Source of the DNA: Lophium mytilinum
Lineage: Eukaryota
Reading direction: 5' to 3'
Assembly: GCA_010093605.1 (NCBI GenBank)
Contig: MU004182.1
Span: 1,645,032 to 1,709,031 of the forward strand
DNA length: 64,000 nt
Of this stretch, positions 24,042 through 62,649 are shown one piece after another. Position 1 is the first letter of the stretch. Each line of letters begins with the position of its first letter. A program made the translations under genes and the position numbers. Below the pieces are notes generated by a model, which was given only the letters and a program-made list of their open reading frames with translations, did not search any database and had not been told where the DNA came from.

Positions 24042-27000
24042 ATGGGCGGCGGCACTGGCGGCATCTGGCATGGGGGGCTTTGTTAGCGAGGGAGCGTGGA
24101 GACGCGTGGAATGGGATTGACGTCTGCAGGTGTCCGAGGGCGCGCGCTGGCAGTCCCTTGGTCGTGCCAGGTACTCCCGCAGCCGCCAGAGATTAGCGGC
24201 AGGCTCTTGCAGACAGTTCGCCGCCCGGCATGCCGGATCCAGCTGTTCGGGATGCCGTTCTCGAGAAGATGAAGTATTTCGTTTGGTCTACAATAATGTC
24301 CTCGCCGTGTTTCGAATTTCTATCTCTGTGCCACTTTACTCCGGGCAAAAGCTGCCTTGTGACGCGAGAAATAAGGGCCAACGCGGTCGATGGCCATGAT
24401 GGTGTCCAGAAACGTGCTTTTGCGACAAGGGTCTTTCCCTGCAGAACATCTGCTTTTGCTCCACCCTCGATGCAGCTCAATCGCGGCGGTCCAACGGCTG
24501 CTCGCGCCTGTGGACAAGACTCGTCGGGAAGGCCAGCCTCGCAGGCGCCTCTACACCACCAACCCGAAAAGGCTTCTCGCGGAAGCATCCCATTGACTGG
24601 CCTCCTTTACTCCCAAGCAGGCTGCTCCAATAGACAGTATGCCATCACGCTCTTTTGCGGGCTGTTTCAGCCATCTTCTCCCAGCCAGCCGGTCCGCCCG
24701 CTTGCTTTCCCTACGTCGCTTGGCCCTGTTGACAGCATCGTTGGATGATGTTAAGCCGCACTGTCGTCAGGCTGCCCAGGCCTGTGTGCCCGCCGACTCC
24801 CCCGCAGCGATCATTGCAGAGTACCGGCCGCGGGGAGACGAGACTCGACGAATTCTCCTCAGGCACACAGCACGGGTAGTACGTGCATAACAGCAACATC
24901 AGTCGCAGTCTGGCGTCGCCGCCTTGTCCCCACGTATCCGCATCTACTAGAGCCCTCGAGACAGCGCTACCGGCACATTTCCCCCTTCCGAACAGCTTCC
25001 TATTGGACGCTGCAACTGTCACTTCTTTCGGGCGACAGTGAGCGGGACCCGATGCACTGGTCGCTGCTAGTACGCTATTGGAGGGCTACTAACGTTTCTG
25101 CTCCCTCTCAGTGGCCGTCAGAGATGACTCGCAGCCGCCACCAGATCAAACGTTCGGACATCCTCGGTGCATCTACACTGGGATCACCCCGCAATTCAAT
25201 CTAAGATCTGAGAGGCCAGCTATACGAGCGTGGCTGCGCCAAAGCCTCCTTACTGGACCCATGCACCGCATCCCGTCTCGGCATGCCGGCCTATCAGAAC
25301 CCGAAATATCTCACCACATCGACTTGTTGCCGTTTCCCCATCATATACTCCAAGCTTCCACTCGAGGGGCCGGACCCTGCCCACGGCGACCCCCATCTCC
25401 TGCAGCTAACACGCGCTTTCTGCAGATCGCTAGCAGAGTACACACCCACGCGCCCCTTCCAGAAGGTGGCTTCATGGCCACGATGAATTGGCTCTTTTCC
25501 GGACTGACAGGTCGCTCAGCGGATCACGGAAGATTCAGGGTGAGCAAATAGATCGGAACTCCGAGATCCACCGTATCAGCCATACTACTCTAAGTAACCG
25601 GCCGGAGGCGCCCAGGTCAACGCCAATTTCTCTGCATTATGTCTCCGGCACACGCTACTTGCGCTTACATGCTCAAGCCCTTGCTGGAGCACTCAGACGG
25701 AACGGAGTCTCCTCTATCCGTTCACCGCTGACATCCCGCGTTGGTCTCTGCGGTACTTCCACCGTCCAATCACCATGTGCTTGCTGTTAAGCTCGTGTTG
25801 GACAGCTTCGAAAGAGCATTCCCCGCGTTCTTCCCCCTGCTGGATCTGGAAGCAGAAGCAATACTTATTTGTATGACGCCACTATACATCGGGGCAAAAG
25901 CTGGCTATCTAAGCTGTGCTGCCTCGCTGTCAAACCACACCCAGTCCTGTGGGGAGCATATGAACAACAAGCGAGTTCAAGGTCGTGTAACTTGCCACGA
26001 ACCCCACTCCGTGCCGATACCACCAGTGTGCCGAAGCCTTTGCCGATGTGTGAAGGACCATTGGCCTACTGTGCCGTGTCTCTTTTGTACCCTATGTTTC
26101 AGCCGGCCGAGAGTCGCCAGACTCTAAAAGCGTAGACCCGGCGTAGCGTCACTGCGTCGAATGTTGTAAGCAACGGTCCGTGCATGGTACGGAAGCTTCG
26201 CTAAGGCCAAAACTCTCTATCGAATATCCTGCTCTACTTTGTCGTAACCTTTTGCTACTGGGTACTCGTAGTACGTTGAGGGTCTAGCAAAGACGACGTT
26301 TCGCCTCGGCATCAAGACCACTGAAACCATCTGGCCTCGGCACAATCTCATATTATAACAGGGAGAGTACTCAAGAGAACCTTTCAAGAAGCCCTCAGAA
26401 CCTGCCAAGTCTCTTTCTACTCCTGGCCGCCGCCAAATGTACATATGTCTTCCATGCTCAAAGACCAACCAAAGCTCCTTCTTTTTCTCAACGTCACCAC
26501 TCGGGACCCCTTTTCCTATTCTAGCCTCTTCATCCCTTTGTTTGCTATCTCAAAGCCCTCTTCTCGGATTTTACGCCCATCTCGTCATCATCAGCTGTCA
26601 GATCTCTACGCTCCCGACGCGACCGTCAGCCAACTCTTTGCCTCAGCCAGCCTCCCCGCCCGCCACGCGGGACACGAAGTCAACGACATGCACCTCGGGC
26701 AGCGGGACAGCGGGGAATCGGTTCCACCGCCAAACACTGGACGTTCGTCTACATAGCCCGCTATGCTGCACGCCATGGGCGGCTCAAGAACGCACGTCTG
26801 GACGCGTTAGGGCATCCTTTCCACGGATCTGCAAGAGGGGAATGCACGAGATTTTACGCACGCGATGAGACGGATAGGGGTGCCTGCAAGGTCGATCCCC
26901 TGCGACGATGGTCCCATTCCTGCGTCGATGAGCTGGCTCTTGCTCGCAGAGCTGCAAATTTGGTTCGGTGCGTGGACAGGAAGCTACCGCATCGAAAACT

Positions 27001-29536
27001 GCTTTGGGAGCGGGGCTTAGAGCTGACGAAGAACGAGGTTTAGCGATTTTGGCTGGGGAGGTTGATCTGGAGCTGATGCCGAATCGATCGCAGGATCAAC
27101 ACGATCGTTTCTGCATGCCGCCTTGCACCTGGCCAGTAGCCGTTTACTCGGGCCATTGTTGGGAAGCGAGCGGGCTGGCGGCTGCTGCCCAGCCAGCGGT
27201 TCGAACGTTGCCGACGGCAGCGCTCTCCTCCTCGAGCTTGACGCGTCGGCATCTAGCCCTGAGCACTCACCAGTAACGCTCGAGCATCAGTGCCAATCGT
27301 ACTACTCTGGGAGAGATATTAGGACTCGTCACAGCCCAATGACGGACAGCATCCACCCCAACTCTCGCCCTGCCTTGTTTTGGTAACTCTCGTCATGCGC
27401 GCGCTGCTCGCCCTTGCCCTACCCTGCTATCGGCATTCCCTTGTCTTATTTTTGGCATCGGATTTCCCACGAATCTGATGGAGATCAGCCATGAACAATA
27501 CGGCACAGTCGCCAGCTTCTCTGTGCTCAGTCGCGCGCGAAAAGGATGTGCCAATGCGCCGCCGGCTTACCTGGCCACGCCGCACGCACGTACGCCAGCC
27601 GCTGGATCCATCCTTCATCCTTGCGACGAGGCACAGGTCGCACAGAGATAGCACGACGTCGGCTGCCGGCAGCCTTCAAGGGTGAGTGTTGGGGTAAAAC
27701 CCGGTAGGGTGGAAGGTTTGCTAGGGAGGGCCTGGAAATTGGCACGCGGGGGGCCGGGGTTGGTCAGCTCTCCTAATCTGACAACCATCGGCAGGTAGGG
27801 AATAGGTTTAAGAGAGGGCAAGCGTGGGATTGGTGTGGAGGGGTGGTAGGCTATCTGCTTCTGGTGGTTTGCTATTGGCAACTGAATCGGGTTCTCCGGA
27901 CGCGAGGAGACTCGGGATGTATGTAGGGGATGCACAGGGCTCAGAACGGCAGGCCTCCCTGCGCGCGCCTTCAAATATGTGAGTCGAATCTCTTATCCTA
28001 CTCTGAGCTTGTCATTGTGTTTCGCTCTAACGGCGCCTTACACCCCATCTTCATCACCTGCGATCTGATCAGTTGGACGTTCCACAATCGTCAGATTTTT
28101 CCCTATTGAAGCGTGTGAGCTTTATGCCTTACTGTCGACCTACGTCGTACTTGCGTTTAAGCTTCGCCGTTACCCCTCCCTAGGTATGTGTCTATCCACT
28201 AGCTCCCGCATTCGGACCGTCTTCTTTCGGACCGTCTTCTGCGCCCGCCTCACACCGCATTACTAGATGAGCACGTGATTGCCTCGAGACGGGGTACTCG
28301 ACGTCACTGTCAGTACATCCATTCTATATAATTTCTGGCGGAAGCGTCGCGTAGACGACGGTCCAGTGAGGAATTCAAAAATCTCTCTGTCCGGAGATAT
28401 GCATCTGTAAATCCCAGATTCGCGCGCGGAGCAGTTATACCAAACGTAGCGATGTGCCGCTTATGCGCTTCCTAAACATCTTGCGAATTGGAGTCAAGCC
28501 GTGTGGAGGCAGCATGCATGCTGGTGAGTGTCAGGGTAGAATGAACGCAGGTGGTCGTTGGTATTCGGATGTGGTCTTGAGTAGCCACCCGCTATAACAC
28601 CTGCGAACACACCACTTCTAATCTACGGAGCAAGGTGGTAACTTGAGTTTTGCAAGATGTTTGGAAGTGACATTGTAGTCGTGGCTTCCTTATGCCAGAA
28701 TGTAAGCCGATGTTAGTATTCGTGCCAGTGACTTCAGAAGCAGTGGACTGTAGCGAGCATGCGTCCGAGCTCAATACACGTAACACCCGGAAGGCGATTT
28801 CCCTTTTCGTCACCGTGAGCTGCTGTAAAACCTTCCTGCTCATTTGCTCCCCGAATGTCCCGTCTAGAGTTTTCCACTCCAGTTTGACCATGCGCCCCTA
28901 CCCCGGTGTGGTTATCTCGGCAAAATGACTTGGCGAAACAATATGAGTATCCTTTCTCTGGCTCCGCTTTATATCAAATTGCTATTTAAGGGTCTCCGCG
29001 TTTTCTTCCGCCGCTATTGAAAACATACCAACTCATGTCAGATAGTGCTGAGCTAGAAAGCGATCTGTCATTTCTCGCAGTTCGTGGCTTTACAGCTGCC
29101 TCAATTTGCGCCACCTAAATGTATGCCATAGTAGCGTCGGCATATGTTCAACGCTCTCGTAACCTCTATGGTCAATCGTTTAGGCACGGCCTCAATCCAA
29201 TTTGCCTCTGAACTCTGATACCTGGCCAAAAATAGTAAAGATGCTTATGACGAACATTGCACCAGCGCTGGCACTCTCGAGAGTATAGATACAAACAGGA
29301 TGAGTGTGATAGAAGCTATCATGGTTTCAGATGCCTAGAGAAGGTTTTTGCGACAGCTCCACCCTTACGTGTCGTTGAAACAACCTTCCATGGCTCGCTT
29401 CATTCGCTTCACATCTTAGGCAGGCGCGGCCAGGGTGACATGACCTCACTTCTATCCTCCACCCATCAACCTCTAAACGCACATCATCCCTTAGATCCCT
29501 CCAGAAAAACACTACAAGTCTCATAAATGTCGTATC

Positions 29537-31061
29537 ATGGCGAAGACGGCGACCCTTCCGAAAAAACCTCCCAATGAAGCCTCGCACATCATCGATCTGA
29601 CCGGCGATGAGACAGTTGACTTGACGGGGGACACGGACTTGGAGAGCAGTTCTGACGAGGGCCCCGAGACTCCTCGGCCAGCGGAGATTGCATCGGGTAC
29701 AGACTCTGAAAGCTCTTCAGATGAGGAAGATCAAGATACTTCGGGCGATTTTCGAGCCGTCATCATTCCCAACGGCAAGCGAAAAGCGACACGCACTACC
29801 TCCGAACCGGGACCCAAGAGACCTGCAACCCATACCAAAGTAGATGCAAAAGAGAAAATACCTGAGCTTAAGCAGACTAAGCTTTCGAGCTTCTTCGTGC
29901 GCAAGGTGCAATGCCTGGCCTGCTACGAAGACTTAATTCCCTCTGCTTTTGCGACCAAGATTACCGCCGAGTGCAATCATGCGTCGCGTATCTGCGCTGA
30001 GTGCGTCCAGGGATCCTTATCTGCTCAACTCTCTGACACAAATACCCGTATCACCTGTCCCAATGCGGACTGCCATCTGCAGTTGACGCATGAGGACATA
30101 CGAACACATGGGACTTACGAGACCTTCGTCCGGTATGCCTCCACGCTACAAAACGCTCCCATCTATCTCATAGCGTACTGACCCACTCTACTAGGTACGA
30201 CACAGCCATTAGTCGCGAAGCAATTCGTGCAATGCCTGGCTTCACTCCATGTCCCAGCGCCAAATGTCCCGGTGGCCACTTCCACGAGACTCCCGAGGCT
30301 GGAAACATTTTTACATGCGAGGTCTGCAAAACAAAATACTGCGTCGTGTGCAACGTGCCTTTTCACACAGGTCAAACCTGCCGAGAGTACGTCGAGGTCC
30401 TGAATACCGCTCCTCAACGGAGAGAAGAAGAGGAGAAGTCGAAAGCGTACATTGAGAGGAGTACGAAGAAGTGCCCAGGAGAGAATTGCGGCTGGAACAT
30501 TGAGAAGAGCGAGGGTTGCGATCATATGACATGTGAGTCCGTTTCTATGGTGGAGCATCAACGTTAGGGTATACTGACTGTCGTGCAGGTCGGAGGTGCG
30601 GGCACGAGTTTTGCTGGGTATGTTTTGCCCCTTGGGCTCCGATCGTCGCGCGAGGAGGAAGCAACGCTCTTCATAACCCTCACTGCAAATACTACGCCAC
30701 ACACGACCCTGAGAACGACGATAGCGAAACATACGACAGTGAGCTAGATGATCTACACGATCGTATGCATCAGGATTTCAGCGATGAATATAACAGCGAG
30801 GACGAGTTGCCAGCCATCGGCGAAAGCTCTCGGACTCAGGAAGATGAAGCAGCTACCGAAGCTCCTCCACCTGCTATGCAACCGCATCATACGCGGGTTA
30901 TACGGGGTAATGATGAGGCGAATGTGGCCTCTCCGCCTCAAGTTCAGCCGATCCATATGCAGCTTCACCGAGAATTGGAGCTTACCAACACCCCACCTGG
31001 TAGTCCGCCCTTACATGTGCGCACTTTGCGAGAGGAATCTCGCGTCAGAGTACAGGCTTGA
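29537..31061 (+). CDS. RBR (RING1-IBR-RING2) E3 ubiquitin ligase, Ariadne-like, copy 1
   Basis: RING1 CLAC..CNH..CAEC..CPNADC; IBR CPSAKC..CEVC..CVVC..H..C; RING2 CPGENC..IEKSEGCDHMT|C.RCGHEFCWVC. Introns about 30133-30194 and 30533-30588. Confidence 0.9.
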
Positions 31062-32145
31062 GGGGCCTATTACGAGACCAGGTGTAATTTTTTCGGCGTG
31101 ATGGGTGTGAAAAAAGGATATGTCCTATCTGTGAAAAGTGGTTTGTCCTGAGATTTTACAAATCTGCATCTTATACCCGAGGAATTTCCATCGTCTTGTA
31201 CCTTCCTTTTTCTACCTATCTTAGCGAAATGGCATTGTGTCTTTGTTTGTTCTGCTGCAATTGATCTGCGTGTGAAGTTTAGTGACTAAATGGCTGCCAA
31301 ATCTTCCGTAGCACTCTACATGAGCCATGTCATCGCTACGTAGAAGACGAGCAAGCGTGTAAGAGGTCCAGCAACTACTCCATCCTCTACTCTACGAGCC
31401 CTTTACCCTAAGATCACCGTAGAATTAGTTAACACCTAAAGCCATCCGTATAGCTTGATTCTGCACGCTGCTGACATTCTAGACTCAGGAAAAATCTCGT
31501 AGACTCACGCAAACTGGCCAGACTTTTGCCACGTAGCCCTTCCGCATTTCTTTCGTTTCCATCAGTTTCTAGGCAATTCTCTTTGCTGCGAGCCCGTGGC
31601 TACCGACTTTCATTTTGTGGTTGACCAACAAAAAGGGGCATGGGGAAAAGGGGCGGGGCTCGTTACTCGCCCAACCGCGCTGACACCCCCAAAGATTCAT
31701 GGTTCAGAGGGTATGTGAGTCACAACCATATTCGCGACCGGACTACGTGGCAGACTAATGCTTGGCTCTCGATTTCGTATAAGAGGCTGCCCTCCCCCTC
31801 GACTTTCTGCGCAGCCTTCGGGCTTGCTAACCTGCTAATCATCTAGATGCTAATACCTCCAGCTGATCTATCTGCCATATATCTACTATATAACATATAT
31901 CTACATCATCTAGAGATCATCTACTTACCATTTCTTTTGTTATTTCAGCCTATTCGGCTTGCTTCCATCTACTTGCTATCTCTCCTCGCGTTCGCGTGTT
32001 TTTCCGATATACGTGTCATCTATTTTTGCCATCTGCTTTTGCCATTTCTTTATGCCGTCTCCTTTCCTATTTTCGTTTTTATCTACTTTGCCACCTACTT
32101 GCCATCTATTTACCATCTTTACCATCTTTTCTCACTTACCCCCGT

Positions 32146-35100
32146 GGGGCGGAGGCGGCATCGTCCACCTGGATGGCCGTCACGGATGGGGGCGTTGGCT
32201 GGGGCCCCCATCTTTACCCTCATTTCTTTGCCATTTACAACCTCCATTTACTACGTGTCATCTACTATCAATTTCCCATACAAATGCCACCTATCTCATC
32301 TTTAACTATATATTTCCATTTAATGCCATTTACATCTGCTATTTACCGGTGCCATATATGCCATTTACCCCCGCTGGGCGGAGGCGGCACCATCCACTTG
32401 GATGGCCGTCACGGATGGGGTGCGTTGTTGGGGCCCCCATCGTAACCCATTTTCATTTTTTCTTAGTGTGTGCGGGGGATTGTGGGATTTCGGTTAGGTT
32501 GATGAGGACGTGGCTAGAGTGAGGTCTTGGAGTGGATGGAGTTCCAGTCTTAGCATAGCAAATATCAAGCCCATTTCATTCTCAACGCTTATCTTTGTGC
32601 TCATTAATGTGATCTCCGCTATTAGTGTACCTTCTTGTGGTGCTTTGAGGATGCCACATCTCCAGCAAATGCGTCTGCTCGTCACTGCCCATACTTTGCC
32701 CAAGGACCTCAACAACACCTTTGAACACATCTTCGAAACACGCAGATTTGTCATCTTTCCCTCCATGGGACCCTCAAAGGCTCTTCTTTTGACGGCGACT
32801 GCATAAGTTTGAACACGCGAGACCCGTCCCACCAGGACTCCTTCCCACCATAAATTCCGCCAGCCTTCCTGACACTATTGAAGGCCATGTGTTCAGTGCC
32901 GACATATCCCGTGGTTAACCGCTCCAGCAAGAATCTGGTGGAATGTTCTCCTTCCACGCGCGGCCTGACGGGCTCGTTATTCACCTTCACTCGTTCAATA
33001 GCGGGCACAGGCCCGGGCGCCCGCCCAAATGGACCAGCCATATAAAGTCTGCCTGCCCCGACGCCTTTCCTTCCTCCAACAACCTACAGTTTTTTCTCCT
33101 ACACAACCACATCACCACATCACCACCCTTCCTTCGTCGCGATCTGAGCAGAACCGGCTCCTCGACCACCTCGGTTCCACTAGGTCTTGCCTCCTCTTTC
33201 CGCCCACCACACAAGCCTGCTGTGTTATCCACCACCGCCTCGTTTCTGCGCCCTACTTGGGGCGCGACCCTGTACTCCTCCACCCGTCACAGAAGCCTCT
33301 TCGACTCCCACCTCCTCTTCCTATCTCTTACATTGCTCGTTCCCGGACTCGGTGGCGGCATTGCACAACCCATTAATTGGGCAATGCCACGGGATGTGGA
33401 GGCTGGGCCCATCTCTTCGACGGCTTCTCGAAGCTTCCATATTGTGGACATCCGTTCGCACCCGATTCACCGGCCTAAGATATCATGTCGGAGATATCGG
33501 GTCTCCACAAAGAACACGCACTCGACACACACTCGCCTTCGTAAGACCACCACCACACTCGCTTCGACTAATTCTTCTTCGGCGTCGTCTCCTCCAACAA
33601 ATCTCTTCGCCTACTCGCCTATAATCTTCCGGGCCTGGTGGGGGGCACCTTACACCCATTGATCGGGGGTGCCCAAGCAAGGAGAGGTTGGCGGCCTTGC
33701 TACCTACTTCGCCTCTTCGGAGTGCAGGTAGGATGCCATTTCGAAGGCATAGATCTTTTCAATTCTCTTCCACCGTTGGAGGGTTCATCCCATCGTGCCC
33801 ACCGCTTCCACCGCTTCCACTACCAAATTGCTCCGACGCGCCACCGCTACCACCTCCTCGCTCTTCGCGACTATCTGCCATACCATTACCGCTGGACCTG
33901 GTGGGGGGCACCTCATACCCATTGATTGGGGGTGCCCAAGCAAGGAGAGGTTGGCGGCCTTGCTACTTACCTCGCACTCCTTGGAGTGCAGGTAGGCGCC
34001 ATGTCGGAGGCGTTTCTTTTCGACTTCATTCACCCGCTAGAGAAGTTGACCTACCTATTCTCCGTTCTTACTTACATAGACTTCATCGCCGAACCAGTTT
34101 TGCAATACTGCTAGAGGGCTTAGCCCAGCAGACATACTTACACCAGCCCGTCTTTGTTCGTCGCCACCACCACCACCACTACCACCACCACCTCCTCCTC
34201 CTCCTCTCTTCTTCTACGATAGAGCAAGACTTCCGGACTCGGTGGGAGCATCCCATTACACCCATAAATTGGGGGATGCTGGGAAGGAGAGGTTGGCGGC
34301 CTTCCCACCTACCTTGCCGACAGGTAGAGCGCCATTTCAGAGTTGCATATACAGTTCGTTTCCAACAGAGTTTTTCTTCCCATCGATAATCCAAGGCCTC
34401 CGAATCGGGTGGAGGCAGTCCTTACCCGTTGATAGGGGACTGCCAGTAATGGGAGGCTGGGCCCATCTCATCGCCAGCCCAAGGTATCATGTCGAAGATG
34501 CCAGGCCTCCGGACCGTGGACCTGGTGGAGGCAGTTCGTCCCCGTCAGTGGGAATTGCCAGTGATGGGAGGTTGGGCCCGTCTCATCGCCGGCCCAAGGT
34601 ATCATATCGAAAGTACTAGGCCTCTGGACCGTGGACCCGGTGGGAGGCTTCTGCTACCCATTAATTGGGGAAGCCTGAGACGGGGAGGTTGCCCCGATCT
34701 CACCTACCTTCACGACTGGTAGGGCGCCATTTCGGAGGTGCGACAGAGCCCTTGCTTTTCTCGACAGCCTAAGATGCCATTTCGGAGACATCAGGCCTCC
34801 GAACCGCTGACCCGGTGGGAGGCTTCTGATACCCATCAATCGGGGGAGCCTGAGACGGGGAGGTTGGGCCCCGATCTCACCTACCTTCACGACTGGTAGT
34901 GCGCCATTTCGGAGGCCCGACGGAATTGTTCTGTTTATCGACGGCCCAACATGTCATTTCGGAAACATCAGGCTTCCACCCGTGGATGGCTTTCTGTAAT
35001 ACCCGCGAAACACCTCATTTCGGAGATGGTGACGCTAATCTGGTGGAGGCATTCCGCACCCATTAATAGGGGGATGCCAGAGATGGGAGGCTGGGCCCGT

Positions 35101-35740
35101 TTCATCTGTCTTCCTGACTGGTAAATCGCCATCTCAAAGGCGTCGCATAGACTCGTTTCCATTTAATGGCCTAAAATGTCATATCAGAGACATCAGGCTT
35201 TCGTACCATGGACCCGTATCAACCTCCGTCGCTCGCTCAATCTGGTGGAGGTATCTCAGACCCGTTGATAGGGAGATACCAGGGATGGGAGGTTGGGCCC
35301 ATCTCATCGACGGCCCCCGAGGCCTCTGTACCTGGACCTGGAACGTGGAAATCGTGTTCGCACGCCTAATCTGGTGGAGGTGTCTCGAACCCGTTAATAG
35401 GGAGATACCACGAGTGGGAGGTTGGGCCCATCTCATCGCCGGCCCCTAGGCCTCCGGATCCGGACTGTGAAAATCGTGGCCTAATCTGGTGGAGGTATCC
35501 CAAGCCCGGCAATAGGAAGATACCATGAGATGGGAGGGCTGGGCCCATCTCATCGACGGCCCCCGAGGCTTCCGGACTTGGACCTGGAAATCGCGTTCGC
35601 ACGCCCAATCTGGTGGAGGTATTCCGAACCCATTAATGAAGGGGGATACCAAAGATGGGAGGCTGGGCCCATCTCCGGACCGTAGACTCTGTCTGCACAC
35701 GACACCGGCCCAAGGTATCATATCGGAGATACCAGGCCTC
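32146..35740 (+). repeat. Array of ~15 divergent structured repeat units plus ~14 copies of a second hairpin motif; probably non-coding RNA elements
   Basis: Unit cores start at about 32146, 32375, 33351, 33637, 33900, 34241, 34408, 34524, 34639, 34814, 35042, 35244, 35373, 35488 and 35612. Stem sequences differ between copies but stay complementary. Confidence 0.85.
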
Positions 35741-36478
35741 CAAGAGGGATATGGGCGGAAGGCAAGGACAATGGGTATGCGGCCACTGGGGTCGGTGGAG
35801 GTGGACATGGTCGGGAGGTTTTTCATCCTACGGGGTTTTCCTCCATATTTATTTTACAGAGAGTTTTACAAATTTTCTCTCGCACAATTTTCATTTACGC
35901 CTGGGGTTCGTCGGCAGGGCGGTAGCTTCCAGAAGAAAGAGGGGGCATTGGTTTTCTAGCCTTGTGCTGGGGATCGAAGTCTCTTCGGGGTTGGGATTGT
36001 TGAGCGGTGGACGAGATTGAGCTGCATTCGGGTAAACGGGTTTGTTCGTAACTGTAGTTAGCTTGTATTGCTATGTTCAAGTCTCTGTTTTAATCAAAGC
36101 ACGGTGGTGAGGTGATATGGAGTTCCTATTCTGCTGCTGATAACGAGATGTACTGTGAACGCATGGTGGACTGGGCTGGGTAGCAGAGTCCTAGGAACAG
36201 AGATCTGAAGAACCAATGGTGAAGCACATTGAGGTATTGGAGGAAAGCAAGGAAATCAGGACTGGACTAAGGCTCTAGGATTTGTCGGATTGAGGAAAAG
36301 AAATAATTTGGTGAGAAGCAAGGATGTGTTGTGTAGAAACCAGAGTATGCACTACGCAAGAATGCGAAGACGCATTGCGCTTCGAGTGAAGGTATTTACA
36401 GGCTCTCTTCATGTCCGATGACCCAGCGTGGAAACTGAGTCGACCCTGTTTAACGTCCTTTTCTAGGCTAATGTTGTA

Positions 36479-37633
36479 CTAGCTTGAATACCAAGCTAGC
36501 GTTTCGTTAAGGAGTTCTTCGTTGTAGCCGTCGATGTATTCGTCGTATTCGTCGGGTTCCACGGCTGCATGTGGAGGCTCAGGATCGTGCAACGGTCGAT
36601 AGTGCTTACAAGATTGGTCATGGAAATGGTTGCCATTCTGAATGATGGGGGTCCAGCTCGTCCGACATAGCCAGCAGAACTGGTGGCCGCATCGAGTGCC
36701 TGAATTGATAGAGTGTTAGATCAGTAAGTAGCATCTTATCTGTAAGAGACGGCTTACATGTCATGTGGTCGCAACCATTGTTCTTCTGGATCCTCCAACC
36801 ACAGCCTTTCCCCGGACACTCTTTTGAGATTTCCCGGATAAGGTTGACCGAGTCCTGCTCTTGTTTCTTGAGTTGCGCAGCTTCAAGCTCTGCAGCCTTT
36901 GCGGCGGCTTCTGCGGCCTCTTCCTCCAGTCGCTTCTTCTCCGTCGCTTCAGCCTCTCTAGCAGCCTTTTCGGCAAGCATTTCTGCCACTGCAGCAGCTT
37001 TCTCGGCACTTTTTGCCTGCCTCTCCAATTTTGCCTTCTTCTTGATGGCAAACTGCTCGCAAGTCAAGTTTCTGTGCCAGGGGGCGTTGCAAACAACGCA
37101 GTACTTCGCTCTGCACGATTTGCACGTGAAGATTGGCTCTGCTACTCCCGCTTCATGGAAGTGTCCACCTCGGCATCTAGCCTTTGGGCATGGAATGAAC
37201 GATTCCATTGAACGTACGGCTTGGAAGGTTACCAAATCATCATACCTGCTGCAATTAGCATTCAACAGCGTATATTATGGGGCTGGTAATCTTACCGGGA
37301 GAATGTTTCCTTGGTACTGTGTGCCTTTACATCGGTGTGACTGAGGACCTCCGAACAGTCACTATGCGGGCAAAAAATCTTGGTGATATTGTCGTCGACT
37401 TGAGAGGTAATGGTTTGCTCAATGCAGCCGCGGCAGATCGTTTGATTGTGCTCGCAGCTCGCTGTGGTTTTGGTGGGGAATGCATCGGCAGCCTTTTCGT
37501 CGAGACATACCTCGCACTCAATGAGAGCAGAAGTGGAGACTCCCGTGTAGATACCCGTAGACTGCGTCGGGATTTTGAGATTTCTCTCGGCAAGTGAGGC
37601 CTCTTCTGCCTTTCTCTTCCTCGAGCCATCCAT
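36479..37633 (-). CDS. RBR E3 ubiquitin ligase, Ariadne-like, copy 2 (start could extend to 37711)
   Basis: CEVC..CEH..CRGC..CPHSDC; CPKARC..CKSC..CVVC..H..C; CPGKGC..IQKNNGCDHMT|CTRCGHQFCWLC; Ala/Glu/Lys-rich coiled insert before RING2. Confidence 0.9.
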
Positions 37634-39411
37634 TATTTTGTTGCGGAGCGGAGGTCTCCAGGGAGCTTGTCTAGTCAAATTCGAATGCTGTAGTCCTTCT
37701 GGGGAATGCATCTTTGTTCGCGAAATGAGTCTAAGCGGATCTCATGGCTCGGTCCGACCTCCCGGCTCCGCTTGACTTTGACTGAACTGAATGGAATGTC
37801 TGACTAGTAAAGGACTATCAGCATTTAGAGATAGCTGTTGAAGCTGGGTGAGATCCAAGACAAGAATACGAATAGGTGTTGTGAGTAGAGACCCTTGGAC
37901 GCGGGGAATAGAGTTGTCTTCCTAGAAGCCTCAAGATGAAGTGACAGTGAGAGGGAGAGAATTCGGTCTGACTTCCAAGATATCGAGAGTCAGCAGAAGT
38001 CCAAGTGAGACTGAAAGCACACGTTGCACCGAACTTAACAGCGATTAGTCCTTGGACTGAGCGAACGATCTGCAAAGCTATGAAAGATGAGGAAATAAAG
38101 AGGCAGCTGTTAAGAAGTTGAGAAAGCCTCGACTAGTGTAGCCGACCTTGCACGCTGGCTCCGTAGTAGTTTGTTTCGGAACCAAGTGAGGTGATTTTTG
38201 AAACAGCTTCATCTGAATCCACGCTGTGGAGTGACCAGGGTAGCACTCATGGCACTAGGTCGTAAGCAAAGACACACGAATATATCCCACCGTGAATGCG
38301 ACTGTTGATGGCTAGACATCGTTGCTCAGAGCATGCGTGTGAGGCAGCAAAGGAACCCCATTTTTCTATTCTGTATACCGACTAGTAATCTTTCACATCT
38401 CATTTCGATGTTCGAGACGTCTGAGTTTCCTCGAATAGCCGCAACCGCAGTGCGCAAAAGGTCGATAACCTGTCACGTGACTGCTCTCAACTCTAACTCA
38501 GAGATGAAGCAGCATCGTCGTGCCCATCTCTACATCCAGTTTCGGTATCTATACTTACTTGCTGTACAAGTTCTGGGACCTTGTTCAAAGACCAGGGGCT
38601 TCAGCGCTGGCGGCGCTATCGTCGTTCTGATCACCAGCGGATCCGTAGTAAAGTGCATGCAGCATGGTTCTCGTCATGCGAAAGAGACATGGCATCGATC
38701 CCTCAAAGACATATCGTACGGCTCCATCTCTTTTGCCTAGCCATCCATGTGTAAATCTCGAAGTCGGTGCAATTGATGCGTCGAGCGGAGGAGTGATGAA
38801 GGCCAAGTCGTCAAGGGGTTAGATGGCCGTGCGCCGCCGATGTCGGGCACGCTTTGATGAACGACTGTCTACTCTCCTATTCCATCAAACTTCATCGCAA
38901 CTCTAATCTCACAATGGGAATTCGTATTCGCGAAACCTTGAATCATGGAGTGCTCTTCTAAGAAGCAAACGGACGGCAAGTAAGGTAATCTCAATCGCGT
39001 CGCAAAGCGTGTCATATACTCTAGTTTCTCATAATCATTTCCATCGCTCATATTGTATTCGTACTGCCATCTATCGCTGTGTTGCTCCGGAATAATAGTA
39101 CATTGAGGCCTCCTCCCTAATCTAAGCTTGAAGGTTGTCATACTACAGCTATCTGATGCAGGTGGGCTAGCTATGTCCACTCTCAGGGCCGTTGGAATCA
39201 CCCAAAGAACTATGCTTAGAGACACCCAGTCACATTCACGATTGCTTCGTCGCGAACGAAGCTTTCACTAAGCATGGGAAACCCCCGATTCATGTCGCGA
39301 CCGCCTGCGGCGTCGACAGCTAAGCTCGTGGCGCACAGCTTTCAGCCTACGTTCTTCACTAACACACCTTGCACGTTCGTCGCCAGGGCTGTCTCACAAC
39401 AATCTACCAGA

Positions 39412-40841
39412 ATGGCACCCAAAGCTCGCGGCAAGGCCACCGCCAAAGCAGCCCAACTGAAAGCATCAGAGGCCACCCCTGAGGAACCACAGGCTGAGAC
39501 GAGGTACAACTTGCGCAAACGCGAGCGCCCCGACCCAGGACACGAGGCCCAAGCAGGGGAAGGTTCCACAGCAAAGAAGAAGAAACCCGCTCCACCTAAG
39601 AAAGCTCGAGGGCAGAAAGCCCCGAGACCAACCGCAGCAACATCCAAGAAGCCCGCGACAACCCCTGAAGCTTCGACGAAAGCAAAGAGTGGCAAGACGG
39701 AGGGAAAGTCTACACACACACCTACTCCGACGAAGTCACAAAGCAAGGGAAATGACTGCAGCCCACAAAGCGGACGCGAGATCGAAGGGGTCTTGGCCGA
39801 CGCAACTAACAAGGCAGGATCGACCTCACAGATTCAACCCAAACAGAAGATTCCAGGTATAGCCACAAGCTTCAGGGCATTTGATGCATCTCTGGCCGCG
39901 CGCGGAACAAAGTCTTCCCTTGCTGTAGTTCTCAAAGTTGCGGCATCCAATATCAACGCCGGCCGCCACGATTCTGTAGTTTTTCATGCGGACGGAACCC
40001 CGCAGAGCCCTTCAGTTAGGAAGCATTCTTGCACGAGCTGTTACGACACGAAGGCCCAGGAAGACTTTCCATATCTACGCCCGGGGCTCTCGCATAATCA
40101 TCCGATAGAGACGTGCCGCGAATGCCTCCAAGCGTGGATCGCCACTAGGGTCTCTGAGAAGATTGTGCAGATTGGTTGCCCAGAGTGCGATGAGCATTTG
40201 TCACGCGGCGTGGTTGAAGCTGTTGCTGAGAAACGCGTCTTTGATCAGTAGGCATTTCAATATCCTCTATATACGACATATAGCTAACGCGGTAGCGCAG
40301 GCTGTGCGAGCAAGAGAGCCTCAACTTCATTCGGACAATGGAAGGCTTCATAAGCTGCCCAAATGCCGACTGCTCGGGCGGTCATCAGCATCCACATCCC
40401 GAAGAAGAACCTATCTTTACCTGCGAGGTCTGCAATGCTAAATACTGCACCCTTTGCAAGGTGCCGTACCACGATGGACTTACGTGTGCAGAGTACAAGC
40501 AGCGAGGGGGCCTCACAGAGGAGCAGAAGGGCCAAGAGGATGCAACGGCCAAGTTCAAAGAGAAGCGCACGAAGAAGTGTCCGGATTGCCGTAGCCCCAT
40601 TCAAAAGGACAGGGGCTGCGACCACATGACATGTAAGAAGCAACGGCAGCGACGGCGATGGATGCAAGAACATGCTGACACAACGCTGTAGGCAGCTACT
40701 GCAGGAAACAGTTCTGCTGGGATTGTCTAGCGGACTGGAACTCAATCATCCGGAATGACAACAGCCGTCACAACCCGACCTGCAGATGGTATCGTGGAAA
40801 CCTGCCCTCTGCACCCCAAGTATTATCAGACACGGAGTCGG

Positions 40842-40872
<31 letters not shown>

Positions 40873-40930
40873 AGACGAGGATGAGGTCATGTTTGGTAAT
40901 GGTGGGGGGGATGAGAGCCTCTATGATTGA
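39412..40930 (+). CDS. RBR E3 ubiquitin ligase, Ariadne-like, copy 3, with long basic N-terminus and acidic tail
   Basis: CTSC..HNH..CREC..CPEC; CPNADC..CEVC..CTLC..H..C; CPDC..IQKDRGCDHMT|CSYCRKQFCWDC; (GAT)n poly-Asp near 40845-40870. Confidence 0.9.
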
Positions 40931-41067
40931 CGGTTTGATGTCCGACCTTTCAATGTGCTAAGATGTATCTAGAGGCCGGACGGGAGTCATAACTAGATAC
41001 CAAAGATTAGACCAAGCCATTGACTAAACAGAAGCTAGCCCAAACATTCTTTTAAACCCAATTAGCA

Positions 41068-41667
41068 CTACCACCCCCCTTCCAACCACACAGTCGCCGC
41101 GAAGCTAAACAGCACCCTCCCATCTGGCAGCTTAGCAACAGCTTCGCACGTGTGGTTCCCAGTGTGCATTGCTGGACCCCAAAGCAAGAAGTCCGCCAGA
41201 ACCTCATTGCTACCCGCTTTCAACGGCCCTCCATAACTGAGGTCTCTCCTGACCACCACGGCCTTGAAATCGCTGATCTTGGCCTCGGCCTCGAATATGT
41301 CAGGGCGGTCCGGCACTTCCGCTCTGGTCAGAAGAGTTGCGTTCTCAAGGCCTGGCAGGGCAGGACTGTAGCCTTCTAAGTAGAAGAAGACGCGCTTGTT
41401 TCTGTGATAGTTAGTAAAAATTAACAGAGTGTTCAGGGCGCATTCTTACTTCGTGGGAGGATTTGGAGCCATTTGGAAATATGAGATGATGAAAAGCTGG
41501 TTTGCCTTCTTTGGGCCGGTGTAGTATGCGGGGCTGTCGCCTGGAACCCTTTCACGGGCCACGGGCTCTTCTAACACCAGTTGACCATCACGGGACCCAC
41601 AAACAAAGGTAGGAAACGATACATGGAGAGCCAAGAACAAGAGAAACCTGACAACGGTGATTTTCAT
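41068..41667 (-). CDS. Small secreted protein, probably ML (MD-2-related lipid recognition, NPC2/PG-PI transfer-like) domain, one intron
   Basis: Signal peptide MKITVVRFLLFLALH.., VPGDSPAYY and MAPNPP motifs, C-terminal LPDGRVLFSFAATVWLEG. Confidence 0.6.
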
Positions 41668-54930: not shown

Positions 54931-55067
54931 AGATGAGGTGGGATCTAAGCTTCGGCTAGTGAATTGCTAGCATTGTTCAATTCTAGCGCCGAAACGCACG
55001 TGTAAACGTGTTGACCTGTTTCTCAACCTCCCGGACACACCCCACGCGCCGGAACCCCACCAACCCT

Positions 55068-58000
55068 ATGGATGCTCTTCTCGATGGACTCAATCCGGCG
55101 CAGAAGAGTGCAGTCACCAGCCCAGCCTCCGTTGTCCAGGTGCTGGCGCCTCCAGGATCAGGCAAGACGAAAACACTCACTTCACGCGTCGCGTACCTGA
55201 TCAACCACAATCGCCTCCAGCCATGGAACATCATCGTCTGCACCTTCACAATAAAAGCCGCACGGGAAATGAAAGAGCGGATCCGGGGATTTGTTGGAGA
55301 TGGAATTGAGGCGAAGCTGATTCTAGGCACATTTCATTCGGTCGCACGTCGGTTCTTGGTCCGGTACGGCAATCATATTGGCATTGAGAAGAATTTTGGG
55401 ATTGCGGACACTTCGGATACTCTGGCGATTATAAAGCGTATCATCAAGCGGCAAGGTTATGGCGTGGAACCAGGCGTAGCTCGGTCAAGAATATCTGGAT
55501 TGAAGGCGCGGAGTACCACCGTGGAGCAATTCGCAGCTACGCACAAGAAAGCGGACCAGCACGAATTTGCGGCCCTTTATGCCGAGTATGACGAGACACT
55601 GAAGACTTCAAATCTACTGGACTACGACGATCTTCTCCTCAGGTGTACTGATCTCCTCCGAAAGCATCCTGAATGTGTTTCAAGCATTCAGGCGGTGCTC
55701 ATTGATGAGTTCCAAGACACCAATCACGTTCAATACGACTTGATGGGTCTATTAGCCCAAAAGCAACAGTGTATCACTATCGTTGGGGACCCTGACCAGA
55801 GCATATACGGATTCCGATCAGCGGAGATAAAAAATCTCAAGTTGATGAGAGAGCACTACCCAGAGACGGTGGTCATCAACCTAGAAAACAATTATAGGTC
55901 ATCAGGGTGCATATTGACCTCTGCACTCGCCGTAATCGAGCAAGACGAAAGCCGACATAACAAGCCTCTTCTTCCCACCCACGTTGTTGGAGAACGGCCC
56001 GTCCTTCGCAAGCTTCCGAATGCTCTGGTCGAAGCGAAATGGCTAGTTTCGGAAATTCAACGATCTAAAACGCTGACTGGAGAATTATTTACCTTCAATG
56101 ACTACGCAATCCTTCTCCGCTCAGCAGCCCTATCTCGGCTCATTGAAACACAACTTGGCAAAGCTGGGATACCATATCGAATGGTGGGCGGCCATCGATT
56201 CTTTGATCGAGTAGAGGTCAAGGTTGTCTTAGACTATCTTCGTGTCGTCAATCAACCTGATCACAACGATGCACTTGTCAGGATTATCAATAATCCACCA
56301 AGAAAGATTGGTGAAGTCACTGTGAAGGCACTTTTGGAAGAAGCCGAGGCAAAGAAGATGACTCTTTGGGATCTAGTTCTTAATCAAGCTCAAGGGAGGA
56401 AGAGACCTCAAACGAAACTGTCGTCACAAGCTGAAAAGGGCATCGACACGTTCGTCAACCTGATTCTAACTTCAAGAAAGAAGCTGCTTAATGAAGACAG
56501 CAAAGACTGTTCTTTGGTCGATCTAATCGCGCATGTTCTCAAAAAGCTATCCTTTCAAGATTTTTTGAGAAAGACGTATCGAGAGGAGTGGGAAGGAAGA
56601 TGGGCCAACGTGGAAGAGTTGGTTGCGCAAGCGACGGATGTAGCGCTGTCTACGGAAGCCGGTGAAAACGCTCTCGACGAAATTTTGCCAGTTGTCGATG
56701 GTATCGAACAGCGCACGCTGTCTTCGGGAGACATATTGACCAAATTTCTGTCCAATGTGGCGCTGTCTACCGAAGTTGAAAAGAAAGATGGAGAGCAAGC
56801 TGAACAAGTCACTATCTCAACCATCCATGCTGCTAAAGGGCTCGAATGGCCCGTGGTATTCATACCTGCTGCTTACGAAGGATCAATACCACACTCAAGA
56901 TCGGAGGATACAGACGAAGAGCGACGACTTCTGTACGTTGGCATGACGAGGGCGCAAGCATTGCTCTACCTAAGTTGTCCCACCCAAAACTCTCTGAAGG
57001 AACAGACGACAATGTCACCCTTTGTTACTCCGAAGAACGTGGTTAGGAGCTTTGATATCAGGGGGCCTTCTTTTGGGTTTCAGACAACCCAAGACTTGTC
57101 CCGCATTCTTCGGCGTGCTTGTCCTGCAGCCTCGATTATTCAACATGCTAAGACACTCATCGAGCGCGTTGAGGACGACCTATACCCCTTGGATGGAGAA
57201 GAGATCGACCCTGAGAGTAGCTACTGGGACATCGACAACCCACGTAGCGATGCTTTTCCTTCCGACTTTCCTTCGAAGCGACGCAAGTTTGAGACAGCGA
57301 AAGCTACCACGATGACGACGTCAACGACAATGCAGAATACCTCACACTATTCCATATCAAACACGACTCTTCCTCCAAGTGGATTCGTCAGCGCTGGTGC
57401 ACATATGAAGGTCCTCCAGGAGACTGAAGCTGCGCAGAAAGTCAGCATTACGAAAGAATATACCCCAAAACAGCTCCAACGCGAGGACAGCGGGATTAGC
57501 AAACTTGGAGTAGCATCTACGAAGAGATCCACCAAGCGACCGATAGGACAAGGGAGTATCAAGAGCTTCTTTACTCACTCAAACTCCCACACAAAGGACC
57601 TTACAGAGAAACCTACCGGCTTCGTCAAGTCTTCGCAGCAATTTCCCGCATTTTCCTCAATATCGCATCAGCCGCCTTTGAACGATGTATCCAACCTCCG
57701 CAAGCAATCTGTTGCCTCGAAGCCCGTTTATGTACCGCCCACCATTTCAACGCACCGACCACGAAATCAACCGCTTCTTGGAAAACCGCGACGGATCGAT
57801 GAGGAAGAGGTTGGAGAAACACAGCGATATGTGCTGCTTTCAAGTTCACCGGTAAAGCTAGAAGAGGCAGATAAAGCGATTGTGGGAAATGGTGAGTTCA
57901 GATGTTCTTCATGCACGTCTTGAGGTTTCTGCTAACTTTGTCCCTCGCTAGGTGCCTCTGCATACGACGCGGAACCCCCTAGCCCAACTAAAATCCTATC

Positions 58001-61399: not shown

Positions 61400-61491
61400 G
61401 CGAGCGTAGTCTAGTGGTTATGATGTCTGCTTTACAGGTCACGTGTCCTTTGAAGCGCAGAAGGTCGGGAGTTCGATCCTCCCCGCTCGTA
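61400..61491 (+). tRNA. tRNA-Val (anticodon UAC) with a 19-nt intron (61437-61455)
   Basis: Acceptor GCGAGCG/CGCTCGT; anticodon stem TCTGC/GCAGA with TTTACA; T arm GGGAG-TTCGATC-CTCCC; T run terminator immediately downstream. Confidence 0.93.
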
Positions 61492-62649
61492 CTTTTTGTT
61501 TTGAGGATGTATAACTCTAGAAGTTCTCTTTTGTGGTGGTAAGTGTGCACGGGAACCTGTGTATAGAACTTGAGGAAGCTTTTTAGGCTTCCGAAGGGCG
61601 TAGTGTATAAGATAGAGCAATACGTAAGTAGGTATCTCGAGATAGTGCAAGATAAATTAGAACCTTTTGATATAGGGAATTGAAGTTCTGGATCCTTAGT
61701 AAGAATTCATTCTCGATGTGTTCGCTCTGTTCTAGAGTTTTAATCGAAAGTGTCATTCAACAACATGCCAAAATCAACTCCAAGTTGCACGGACTGGCTC
61801 ACGTTCATACATCTCAACACCTCATAAAATTCCCCCAATTCCAGTCTAATTTAGCTGGCCACAGATCTTACATCTTGATTTAATCGTAAGACTTCTACAC
61901 TGGGCATTGTTAGAAGCTAGAGGCCCGAAGTCGTAACCTCTTTCATACCCTTTTGCCGCGGGGTCGAAATCGCGGACTGGCTCCTCTTTATGCACATCAA
62001 CCGTGGTTCAAAAATCTCATTTCTCTAGGTCCGTTTAAAAGTGTCGTGCAGAGATCTGCCAAAGACAATTGTAAATTGCATGGAATGGCTCATGTTGGTG
62101 CCTCTTAACACACTATGACTTGGATAAACTCCTATGTCATGATTCAGAGGGGCGTAGCGTCTATTCGTAAGAGCCTGCTGGATCATGCCTCGAGGGCGAT
62201 TGAAAGCGAGGGACGGCAGATTGGAACATATCTGGAACGAAAGTGCTTTAGTATAAAGAATACGGACTCCCGTTTACGCTTCTCGTTGTTAGCCAGAAAG
62301 CGTCTCTCATCACAGGTTCCTAGATCTGGGATCCAATAACCGGTGTAGAAGAGGGCTGTGATAAAGGACAAAAGACAGAAAGAAGAAGAATGAAGGGGAG
62401 TATCGTATGCATATCTCATCGTAGCCGCACGTCTATAGTAGTCACCCATACCCAAGCAGCAGCCATGACCCTGCTCACCGACCCATCCAGCCCCAAGCGT
62501 TCCCAATTACTTCCACCCGAGCGGAGCGGACTCAAGCTGTCAAATGCTCTGTACGTCACTAGCACCGCGACTCAGCTCTAGAACACCATCCTGAGTCGAG
62601 GTAAGGATGGTATTCTAGGATCAATCTATCGCCTCCAGCCGCCCCCAGC

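Follow-up and report, generated by a model that had tools for sequence, protein, structure and literature searches.

A window of 64,000 nucleotides from the fungus Lophium mytilinum (GenBank assembly GCA_010093605.1, contig MU004182.1, positions 1,645,032 to 1,709,031 of the forward strand; all coordinates below are positions in this window) contains a gene-free, intergenic array of 3.6 kb, made of fifteen hairpin-bearing units at 32148-35684 that all lie on the + strand. The array is a repeat of hairpin modules under structural constraint and is found in none of the catalogues that we searched: its stems covary beyond what the phylogeny of the copies explains, while its unpaired motifs are more conserved than the stems. 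Such covariation is a mark of an element that folds as RNA or as single-stranded DNA. The element is interesting and probably undescribed.

A preliminary description of this DNA had proposed about fifteen units on a single strand; all fifteen were located (u01 to u15, Table 1), and every stem that it had quoted is present and complementary. In the window a loose unit pattern matched 9 times, whereas 100 shuffles gave an expectation of 0.00. We then ran a covariance model (CM R1), seeded with the eight units of subtype B (alignment A4), over both strands of the 64 kb with filters off. The model recovered 13 units at E values of 4.4e-19 to 1.6e-6, and 5 of these 13 belong to subtype A, outside the seed, with 37.9-45.1 bits. 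It was weak on the two leftmost units (E 0.022 for u01), and beyond the fifteen it gave no match better than E 1.6. Likewise, blastn with a word size of 9 found no similarity between the array and the rest of the window. The two leftmost units are a distant subtype.

Each module starts with a G-rich head (GGUGGRG, with its GGYGG at the unit starts of Table 1), followed by hairpin 1, hairpin 2 and often, in last place, a further hairpin (H). Hairpin 1 consists of a 7-bp stem of free sequence (stem 1), a bulge, an invariant inner CCC/GGG stem and the loop RUYRAU, and hairpin 2 has a stem of 7-10 bp and the conserved loop GAGGYUGG. Conserved linkers are also part of the array. The units start 115-974 nt apart, with repeat periods of 115, 129, 175-177 and 263 nt. 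The five A-type units (u04, u05, u06, u09, u10) possess a 6-bp closing helix GGUGGG/CCUACC and a three-way junction in their minimum free energy (MFE) fold, and the B-type comprises u03, u07, u08 and u11-u15. The C-type units u01 and u02, 84% identical over 87 nt, have the two-hairpin layout in common with A and B and a different sequence.

Table 1. Positions of the units and other features of the array in the 64-kb window.
Feature	Position	Strand	Description
Simple-repeat tract, degenerate	31850..32360	+	CCATCTAC / GCCATTTAC-like; holds both C-type units; families D18-D20
u01	32148..32219	+	C-type; head GGCGGAGG; two hairpins; MFE -37.5 kcal/mol, z -1.93; CM 19.1 bits
u02	32377..32448	+	C-type; CM 10.9 bits, E 1.4; other genomic copies
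TATA-like site	33039..33047	+	CATATAAAG, then pyrimidine-rich tract; ~300 nt upstream of u03; sequence only
u03	33351..33424	+	B-type; stem 1 GGCATTG/CAATGCC; CM 75.2 bits
u04	33637..33710	+	A-type; closing helix GGUGGG/CCUACU (6 bp); stem 1 GGGCACC/GGTGCCC; stem 2 AGCAAGG/CCTTGCT; MFE three-way junction; CM 41.5 bits, not seed
u05	33900..33973	+	A-type; sister to u04; CM 41.3 bits
u06	34241..34315	+	A-type; stem 1 AGCATCC/GGATGCT; stem 2 GGGAAGG/CCTTCCC; CM 42.8 bits
u07	34408..34478	+	B-type; stem 1 GGCAGTC/GACTGCC; CM 91 bits
u08	34524..34593	+	B-type; tandem sister to u07 (115-nt period); CM 82.3 bits
u09	34639..34707	+	A-type; stem 1 AGGCTTC/GAAGCCT; MFE -36.5 kcal/mol, z -4.35; CM 37.9 bits
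u10	34814..34884	+	A-type; tandem sister to u09 (175-177-nt period); CM 45.1 bits
u11	35042..35112	+	B-type; CM 85.4 bits
u12	35244..35314	+	B-type; stem 1 GGTATCTC/GAGATACC; CM 94.8 bits
u13	35373..35443	+	B-type; CM 87.4 bits
u14	35488..35560	+	B-type; sole A-C cell of stem 1; CM 76.1 bits
u15	35612..35684	+	B-type; final full unit; CM 78.6 bits
Remnant of a 16th unit, putative	35793..35822	+	Degenerate, at array end; GGTGGAGG ... GGGAGGTTTTT; judged by sequence; CM silent at E<=10
P hairpins (5)	33703-33731, 33966-33995, 34308-34327, 34703-34722, 34880-34899	+	3' of A-type units
H hairpins (14)	33479..35733	+	Variable 5-6-bp stem around AUNUCRRA; loop motif CAUNUCRRA
H hairpins, CAT starts	33484, 33737, 34000, 34333, 34488, 34603, 34728, 34778, 34905, 34955, 35016, 35130, 35180, 35719	+	Each hairpin extends from 5 nt before to 14 nt after the CAT start
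T4-T5 runs	33756, 34017, 34371, 34756	+	17-38 nt past the H loop after u04, u05, u06, u09

Because MAFFT alignments (A1-A3) placed stem 1 out of register between the subtypes, with RNAalifold finding only 8 pairs on A1, pairing was assessed at fixed offsets and in a CM alignment. At fixed offsets the 105 stem-1 cells of the 15 units hold 95 Watson-Crick pairs, 7 G-U, 1 A-C and 2 other combinations, and each of positions 3-7 shows three or four pair types. In the CM alignment, which holds 13 units, pairing was present in 93.6% of 233 cells, compared with 41-55% when partners were slid by 1-3 columns; double changes affected 10 of 18 pairs (1-6 when slid), and the covariation score was 0.528 (at most 0.103 when slid), with 0 of 500 shuffles doing as well in three of five measures. 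As it was fitted to the model, this alignment leans towards structure. To allow for the phylogeny of the copies, we used a tree-aware null, in which the 14 columns of stem 1 evolved independently, with matched diversity, on a FastTree tree of the units. Stem 1 was 98.9% paired, whereas simulated means were 55-74% (maximum 95.6%) and 0 of 2000 simulations reached the observed value under any of the four settings; at least six double-change pairs occurred in 8-30 of 2000 simulations. Whether covariation survives the phylogeny of the copies had been set beforehand as one of the tests able to refute the structure, and since the null never reaches the observed pairing the covariation stands, on strong evidence. 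On a minimal spanning tree, the 13 stem-1 variants are connected by 9 compensatory changes, 9 single changes in which a G-U maintains the pair and 2 changes in which a pair is broken.

Conservation favours the unpaired motifs over the stems. Majority fractions reached 0.92 in the head, 0.93 in loop 2, 0.76 in loop 1 and 0.97-1.00 in the inner CCC/GGG stem; those of the two stem-1 strands were lower, at 0.67 and 0.69.

The relationships between copies point in the same direction. The tandem sisters u07/u08, u09/u10 and u12/u13 share their linkers too and were therefore duplicated in place, and all their stem-1 differences keep the pairs; between u07 and u08, for example, stem 1 differs by one compensatory C-G to U-A change and one G-C to G-U change, with zero pair-breaking changes. 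Identity between u09 and u10 is 83% over the entire 177-nt unit. The structured ~125 nt of u05 match those of u04 at ~93% identity, and the following ~140 nt are unalignable. Both transitions and transversions occur among the substitutions between sister copies, and nothing in them points to a special process.

The H hairpins covary too. In a MAFFT alignment free of gaps and made without fitting to structure (A7), 82.1% of 84 cells were paired, compared with 21-57% when slid, double changes were present in 5 of 6 pairs, and the covariation score was 0.59 against at most 0.28. At u09 (34782-34803) the H loop UUCGGAG has its complement, CUCCGAA, in the linker that begins 9 nt downstream, and CUCCGGA in the other linkers is nearly complementary; such loop/linker pairing is a further competitor of the H hairpin. 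Five runs of at least four T are present in 33300-35800, and four of them occupy the homologous place after an A-type unit. These runs could serve as RNA polymerase III (Pol III) terminators, giving units of ~130 nt, and the TATA-like site upstream of u03 is a candidate promoter.

The preliminary description had drawn each unit as a three-way junction. The closing helix is solid in the five A-type units, where it has 6 bp, and weak in seven of the eight B-type units, where it has 1-3 bp; the sixth closing pair of the B-type unit u11 is apparently fortuitous. It is convincing in only 5 of 13 units. In addition, the bases CCUAC(C) that form the 5' strand of the P hairpins also form the 3' strand of the closing helix, which makes the two mutually exclusive, and long-range MFE folds of u09/u10 choose the P hairpin. 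A chain of covarying hairpins is the safe description, with a junction possible for the A-type only.

An excess of G-U pairs had also been put forward as marking the + strand. It is clear in stem 1, where two of the seven G-U are one pair repeated in the sisters u01/u02, and weak over all hairpins: folded on both strands, these gave 323 Watson-Crick and 31 G-U pairs on + and 320 and 23 on -. Hairpins 1 and 2 are ~10% more stable on + than their complements (~18 kcal/mol summed), whereas for the H hairpins stability is slightly higher on - (-72.6 vs -68.1 kcal/mol summed). The mean z-score per unit is -1.79 for + and -1.23 for -, with 4 of 15 units scoring better on -.

To place the array among known elements, several collections were searched. 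At gathering thresholds, the sole match of Rfam 15 in the 64 kb was a tRNA at 61400; at E<=10, three chance-level matches appeared in 31800-36200 (15.5-16 bits, compared with gathering scores of 36.7-70), and the tRNA, 5S and signal recognition particle (SRP)/7SL models did not match the array even then. Telomerase RNA, snoRNAs, self-cleaving ribozymes and riboswitches were among the families that gave no match in the array at their gathering scores. This agrees with the earlier failure to recognise a known family. ARAGORN found zero tRNA-like genes in the array. Also in line with the preliminary description, no open reading frame (ORF), transposase or terminal repeat spans the array: there is no transposase domain, the ORFs have no credible match, and the ten inverted pairs found (14-23 nt, 77-93%) bracket neither units nor array. 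The array is not coding, since none of its periods is divisible by 3 for all units and the ORFs lack a credible family match. With the unit pattern, metagenome contigs gave 11 loci, prokaryotic genomes 13 and viral contigs 0. The 11 metagenome matches have folds unlike the unit, and over all 24 loci the best score of CM R1 was 13.2 bits (E 0.53), which is why we regard them as chance matches. The 14-nt string of loop 2 was absent from the literature searched. In the available portions of a fungal motif survey (PMC5640933) the terms 'repeat', 'tandem' and 'transpos' are absent, and the portions of the literature on introner-like elements and fungal short interspersed elements (SINEs) at hand held nothing matching the array.

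Several candidate identities were rejected. For a tRNA-derived SINE, which would have a head with a cloverleaf and A and B boxes, no tRNA-like gene was found, and loop 2 reads GGYTGG(G/C) against GAGTTCGATCC in the tRNA of the window; the B-box consensus is GGTTCGANNCC, and a B box would read GGTTCGA. A miniature inverted-repeat transposable element (MITE) was dropped, with no terminal inverted repeat around units or array and, by inspection, no shared flank duplication around u04/u05, and a coding gene likewise, the ORFs being of low complexity with a single sub-cutoff Pfam match (E 0.005) and the periods shifting the frame. Against introner-like elements, the units tile without exons, no gene spans the array and the donors would be GTGGAG/GTGGGR. 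The hammerhead, twister, pistol, hatchet, HDV and VS models of self-cleaving ribozymes were all unmatched. Against the CR4/5 junction of telomerase RNA, which has a 4-bp P6.1 hairpin beside P6 and P5 and a P6.1 loop resembling GUUGGGC, hairpin 2 of the array has 7-10 bp and no telomerase model matched. The SRP Alu domain, 5S rRNA, the CNGG loops of Smaug/Vts1 and the AGNN loops of Rnt1 were considered and dropped as unsupported. The heads read TGGTGG(A/G)GG in 9 of 13 A/B units, the reverse complement of ...CC(U/C)CCACCA; this complement resembles a tRNA 3' end with CCA, as in the primer-binding site of a retroelement. The idea that a tRNA with the end CCUCCACCA has its primer-binding site here was dropped because no result supported it.

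The subtypes differ in their occurrence beyond this locus. The A/B units have about single-copy depth in DNA runs, and no other contig matches them at >=85% likeness, the limit of this search, with more diverged copies outside its reach. For the C-type, other contigs of the DNA runs match 32363-32424 with 4 differences, and loose ends fall at 32362-32449; from these ends, together with a second contig, the other genomic copies are seen to be flanked by similar simple-repeat tails. Over 32362-32449, contigs of the DNA runs and of the public run X3 also contain joints marked 'goes back 65-87' and 2-nt insertions. X3 consists of contigs only and has no recorded RNA status, but is RNA-like in that its contigs are spliced across the flanking genes at GT..AG joints. 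Other forms of the C-type, variant or tandem, therefore exist elsewhere, and the RNA-like run includes some (depth 7-19) that may or may not stem from this locus.

The array occupies a 5-kb gap separating the 3' ends of two convergent IBR genes. The flanking genes had been described as RBR E3 ligases, and an IBR domain was indeed found on both sides, at 30094-30567 on + (E 4.6e-15) and at 36618-37274 on - (E 5.6e-14). The left-hand gene also encodes the motif C-G-H-x-F-C-W-x-C within 30537-31061, and the right-hand RBR gene has a weak RING match (E 0.0037) at 37292-37741 (-). The two genes, 29500-31061 (+) and 36108-38761 (-), are only remotely similar, the similarity in BLASTP being confined to a C-x-x-F/Y-C-x-V-C motif (E 0.004). 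Spliced contigs confirm their introns at 30532-30589, 36698-36757 and 37242-37293, and in the RNA-type contigs the introns of neighbouring genes are GT..AG introns of 48-154 nt. X3 contigs cover 26000-28635, 30589-31050, 36108-38761 and 39134-41401, and none lies in 32942-35611, the uncovered part being no evidence on expression. The RNA contig for the right-hand RBR gene (-) has its end at 36108, immediately right of the array.

At or just past the 3' end of this transcript, two short stretches (36413-36446 and 35927-35970) coincide with breaks of DNA-run contigs with loose ends (up to 7 at 36446) and with a depth of up to 276 versus ~158, and have the look of another kind of small dispersed repeat. 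A simple (CCA)n/(CCT)n tract lies at 34151-34220, between u05 and u06, and was passed over as a repeat when reads were mapped. Elsewhere in the window, an unbroken frame of 978 codons at 54987-57923 (+) encodes a UvrD/Srs2-type helicase (UvrD-helicase 4.5e-75, UvrD_C 1.8e-67) that clusters with Ascomycota sequences. The tRNA gene at 61400-61492 (+; Rfam tRNA 55.3 bits) contains an intron, a B box of normal sequence (GAGTTCGATCC) and T5 followed by T4 at its 3' end, and is given an odd four-base anticodon, 'taca', by ARAGORN.

The best reading of these results, which we hold tentatively and with less than even confidence, is that the array represents a non-coding RNA of the + strand displaying conserved loops. 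A lineage-specific family of small hairpin modules would have been multiplied here by tandem duplication, with selection maintaining the fold of one strand. Judging from the sequence, the + strand would most likely be transcribed, either as one long non-coding RNA initiating near the TATA-like site or, for the A-type, as units of ~130 nt terminating at the T runs. The stems would serve only to expose the conserved loops, at each of which a sequence-specific partner could dock, and the result would be a multivalent scaffold or decoy. The transcription of the array, its functional strand, its partner and its function are what we infer here. Such an RNA accounts for the conservation of the loops, the single orientation (15 of 15 units and 14 of 14 H hairpins on one strand), the keeping of pairs in duplicates made in place, the decay of the spacers and the modest bias towards +. 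Of the interpretation first offered, the units, their strand, the covariation and the lack of an ORF or Rfam match remain, and the general junction and the G-U mark of the strand are weaker than proposed. A more specific form seems possible though rather unlikely: a new ascomycete family of structured RNAs with modules of ~130 nt, present 13-15 times at one locus and made as separate Pol III-type RNAs or as one transcript. Each module would comprise the G-rich head, two hairpins closable as a three-way junction, a capped H hairpin and a U run, and a loop-binding protein would be sequestered or scaffolded, possibly in connection with the flanking RBR ligase genes.

Several results weigh against the + strand RNA. 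No evidence shows that the + or the - strand is transcribed, and the strand signal is weak, both in the G-U counts and in the slight preference of the H hairpins for -. Folds of 1 kb were ordinary compared with dinucleotide shuffles (z -0.72 and -1.42 on +, -0.43 and -0.71 on -). The closing helix is weak across most B-type units, and alternative pairings compete, namely closing helix with P hairpin and linker CCUCC with the GGAGG of head or loop 2. The C-type is dispersed, as expected of a mobile element, and the abrupt homology borders of u04/u05 fit a copying of the module alone. Finally, no related sequence was found in the metagenome, prokaryote and viral collections, which hold few or no fungal genomes.

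A close rival, which we hold to be only slightly less likely, is a selfish, non-autonomous repeat of the SINE, MITE, satellite or REP-like kind, piled up locally in a tolerant gap and having no host function. Its hairpins would be required for its own copying, with a reverse transcriptase recognising them in RNA or a transposase in single-stranded DNA, and covariation would be expected here too, because only copies that still fold propagate. The simple-repeat tails common to C-type copies elsewhere, the modular make-up with optional P hairpin, H hairpin and linkers, the irregular spacing, the sharply bordered u04/u05 module between unrelated flanks, the position between the 3' ends of convergent genes and the separation of subtypes A, B and C by compensatory changes all suit such a repeat. 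It is harder to reconcile with the near single-copy depth of the A/B units, which have no other contig within the likeness searched, or with the other 60 kb of the window, where there is no second copy. Neither bracketing terminal inverted repeats nor, by inspection, a target-site duplication at the u04/u05 flanks was seen, and no kinship to tRNA, 5S or 7SL was found. Moreover, duplicates made in place keep their pairing, so selection at the locus or gene conversion is needed. Gene conversion between units, or quasi-palindrome correction by templated repair inside hairpins, would restore complementarity if the units were function-free DNA palindromes in tandem duplication, an explanation that we regard as unlikely. 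Ordinary folding at the kilobase scale, two strands that fold nearly equally well, the near-perfect palindrome CCC-ATTAAT-GGG inside several units and the mixed sister substitutions are in keeping with it; it leaves unexplained why head and loops outconserve the stems, why the u04/u05 spacer has fully decayed beside a ~93% identical module, and why half of the stem-1 changes are G-U intermediates with one A-C.

That G-U to A-C asymmetry (7 vs 1 on +) also speaks against a functional - strand, as a read-through or 3' region of the - strand RBR gene with units ending in ...CCUCCACCA. This is very unlikely in our view, as hairpins 1 and 2 are together ~18 kcal/mol more stable on + and the conserved T runs would become A runs, even though the pair counts are nearly equal, the H hairpins are more stable on -, 4 of 15 units have a better z there and the RBR contig ends just right of the array. 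Least probable is that the units are introns of the introner-like kind or parts of a repetitive coding gene. A-type units do start with G|GTGGGR, followed by CTCAC/CTAC and, ~80-95 nt on, YAG, and open frames of 247 and 254 codons are present on + in 32919-34389. These frames, however, are of low complexity with only the sub-cutoff match, periods of 115, 116, 124, 129, 175 and 177 nt shift the frame, 34400-35740 is tiled by units with no room for exons, and GTGGAG/GTGGGG are poor donors compared with the introns of neighbouring genes.

Among known systems, the bacterial palindromic repeats REP/BIME are 20-40 nt long, are often found in alternating orientation, number hundreds of copies and rely on RAYT transposases. 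Like them, the array has hairpin repeats clustered between convergent gene ends, with covarying stems, a constant tag or loop, no ORF, and variable copy number and spacing. It differs in being located in a fungus, in its modules of 70-130 nt with two or three hairpins and in its single orientation, with only the C-type seen beyond this locus. The Xist A-repeat and the NORAD repeats belong to animal RNAs that serve as multivalent platforms for proteins, are expressed and have known partners. They resemble the array in their tandem hairpin modules with conserved single-stranded motifs, variable spacers and use of one strand, whereas the array is known from sequence alone. Hammerhead satellites and retrozymes are built of tandem units of 100-300 nt, each with a three-helix junction; the array likewise has tandem units with a possible three-helix junction, but no conserved core of the CUGAUGA/GAAA type, and its junctions have 0-1 nt.

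Some SINEs have a structured RNA head derived from tRNA, 5S or 7SL, and subfamilies of Alu/B1 keep their 7SL-like pairing by compensatory changes. The array similarly has a structured unit of comparable size, subtypes separated by compensatory changes, T runs that could end Pol III transcripts and, in the C-type, simple-repeat tails. The order GGUGG, CCC, GGGAGGCUG in the array is that of human 7SL/Alu. Unlike SINEs, the units of the array tile in tandem, without a target-site duplication seen and without a match in Rfam or ARAGORN. In the excerpts at hand of PMC13023118, 7SL-derived SINEs are reported from supraprimates and hagfish only. Introner-like elements are fungal and multi-copy and have a stable predicted secondary structure, according to the available portions of PMC3609843. 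The fungal host, the multiple copies and the predicted fold are shared with the array, but introner-like elements are spliceosomal introns within genes, in hundreds of copies, and the array is intergenic and head-to-tail, with poor splice signals.

With more than 12 paralogous modules that carry their own record of covariation, the fold of this element can be argued from a single genome. To our knowledge, very few structured RNAs are catalogued in fungi apart from the housekeeping ones, and selfish hairpin repeats of the REP/BIME kind are poorly described there. If the array is selfish, it would be a eukaryotic analogue of the bacterial REP/BIME clusters, with hairpins selected for their own propagation. 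If transcription occurs, the array would give fungi a rare natural case of an RNA for the multivalent display of hairpins and would offer a handle on a protein that reads the loops; and if the more specific reading as an ascomycete RNA family is true, the array would be a fungal counterpart of the protein-sponge or scaffold RNAs.

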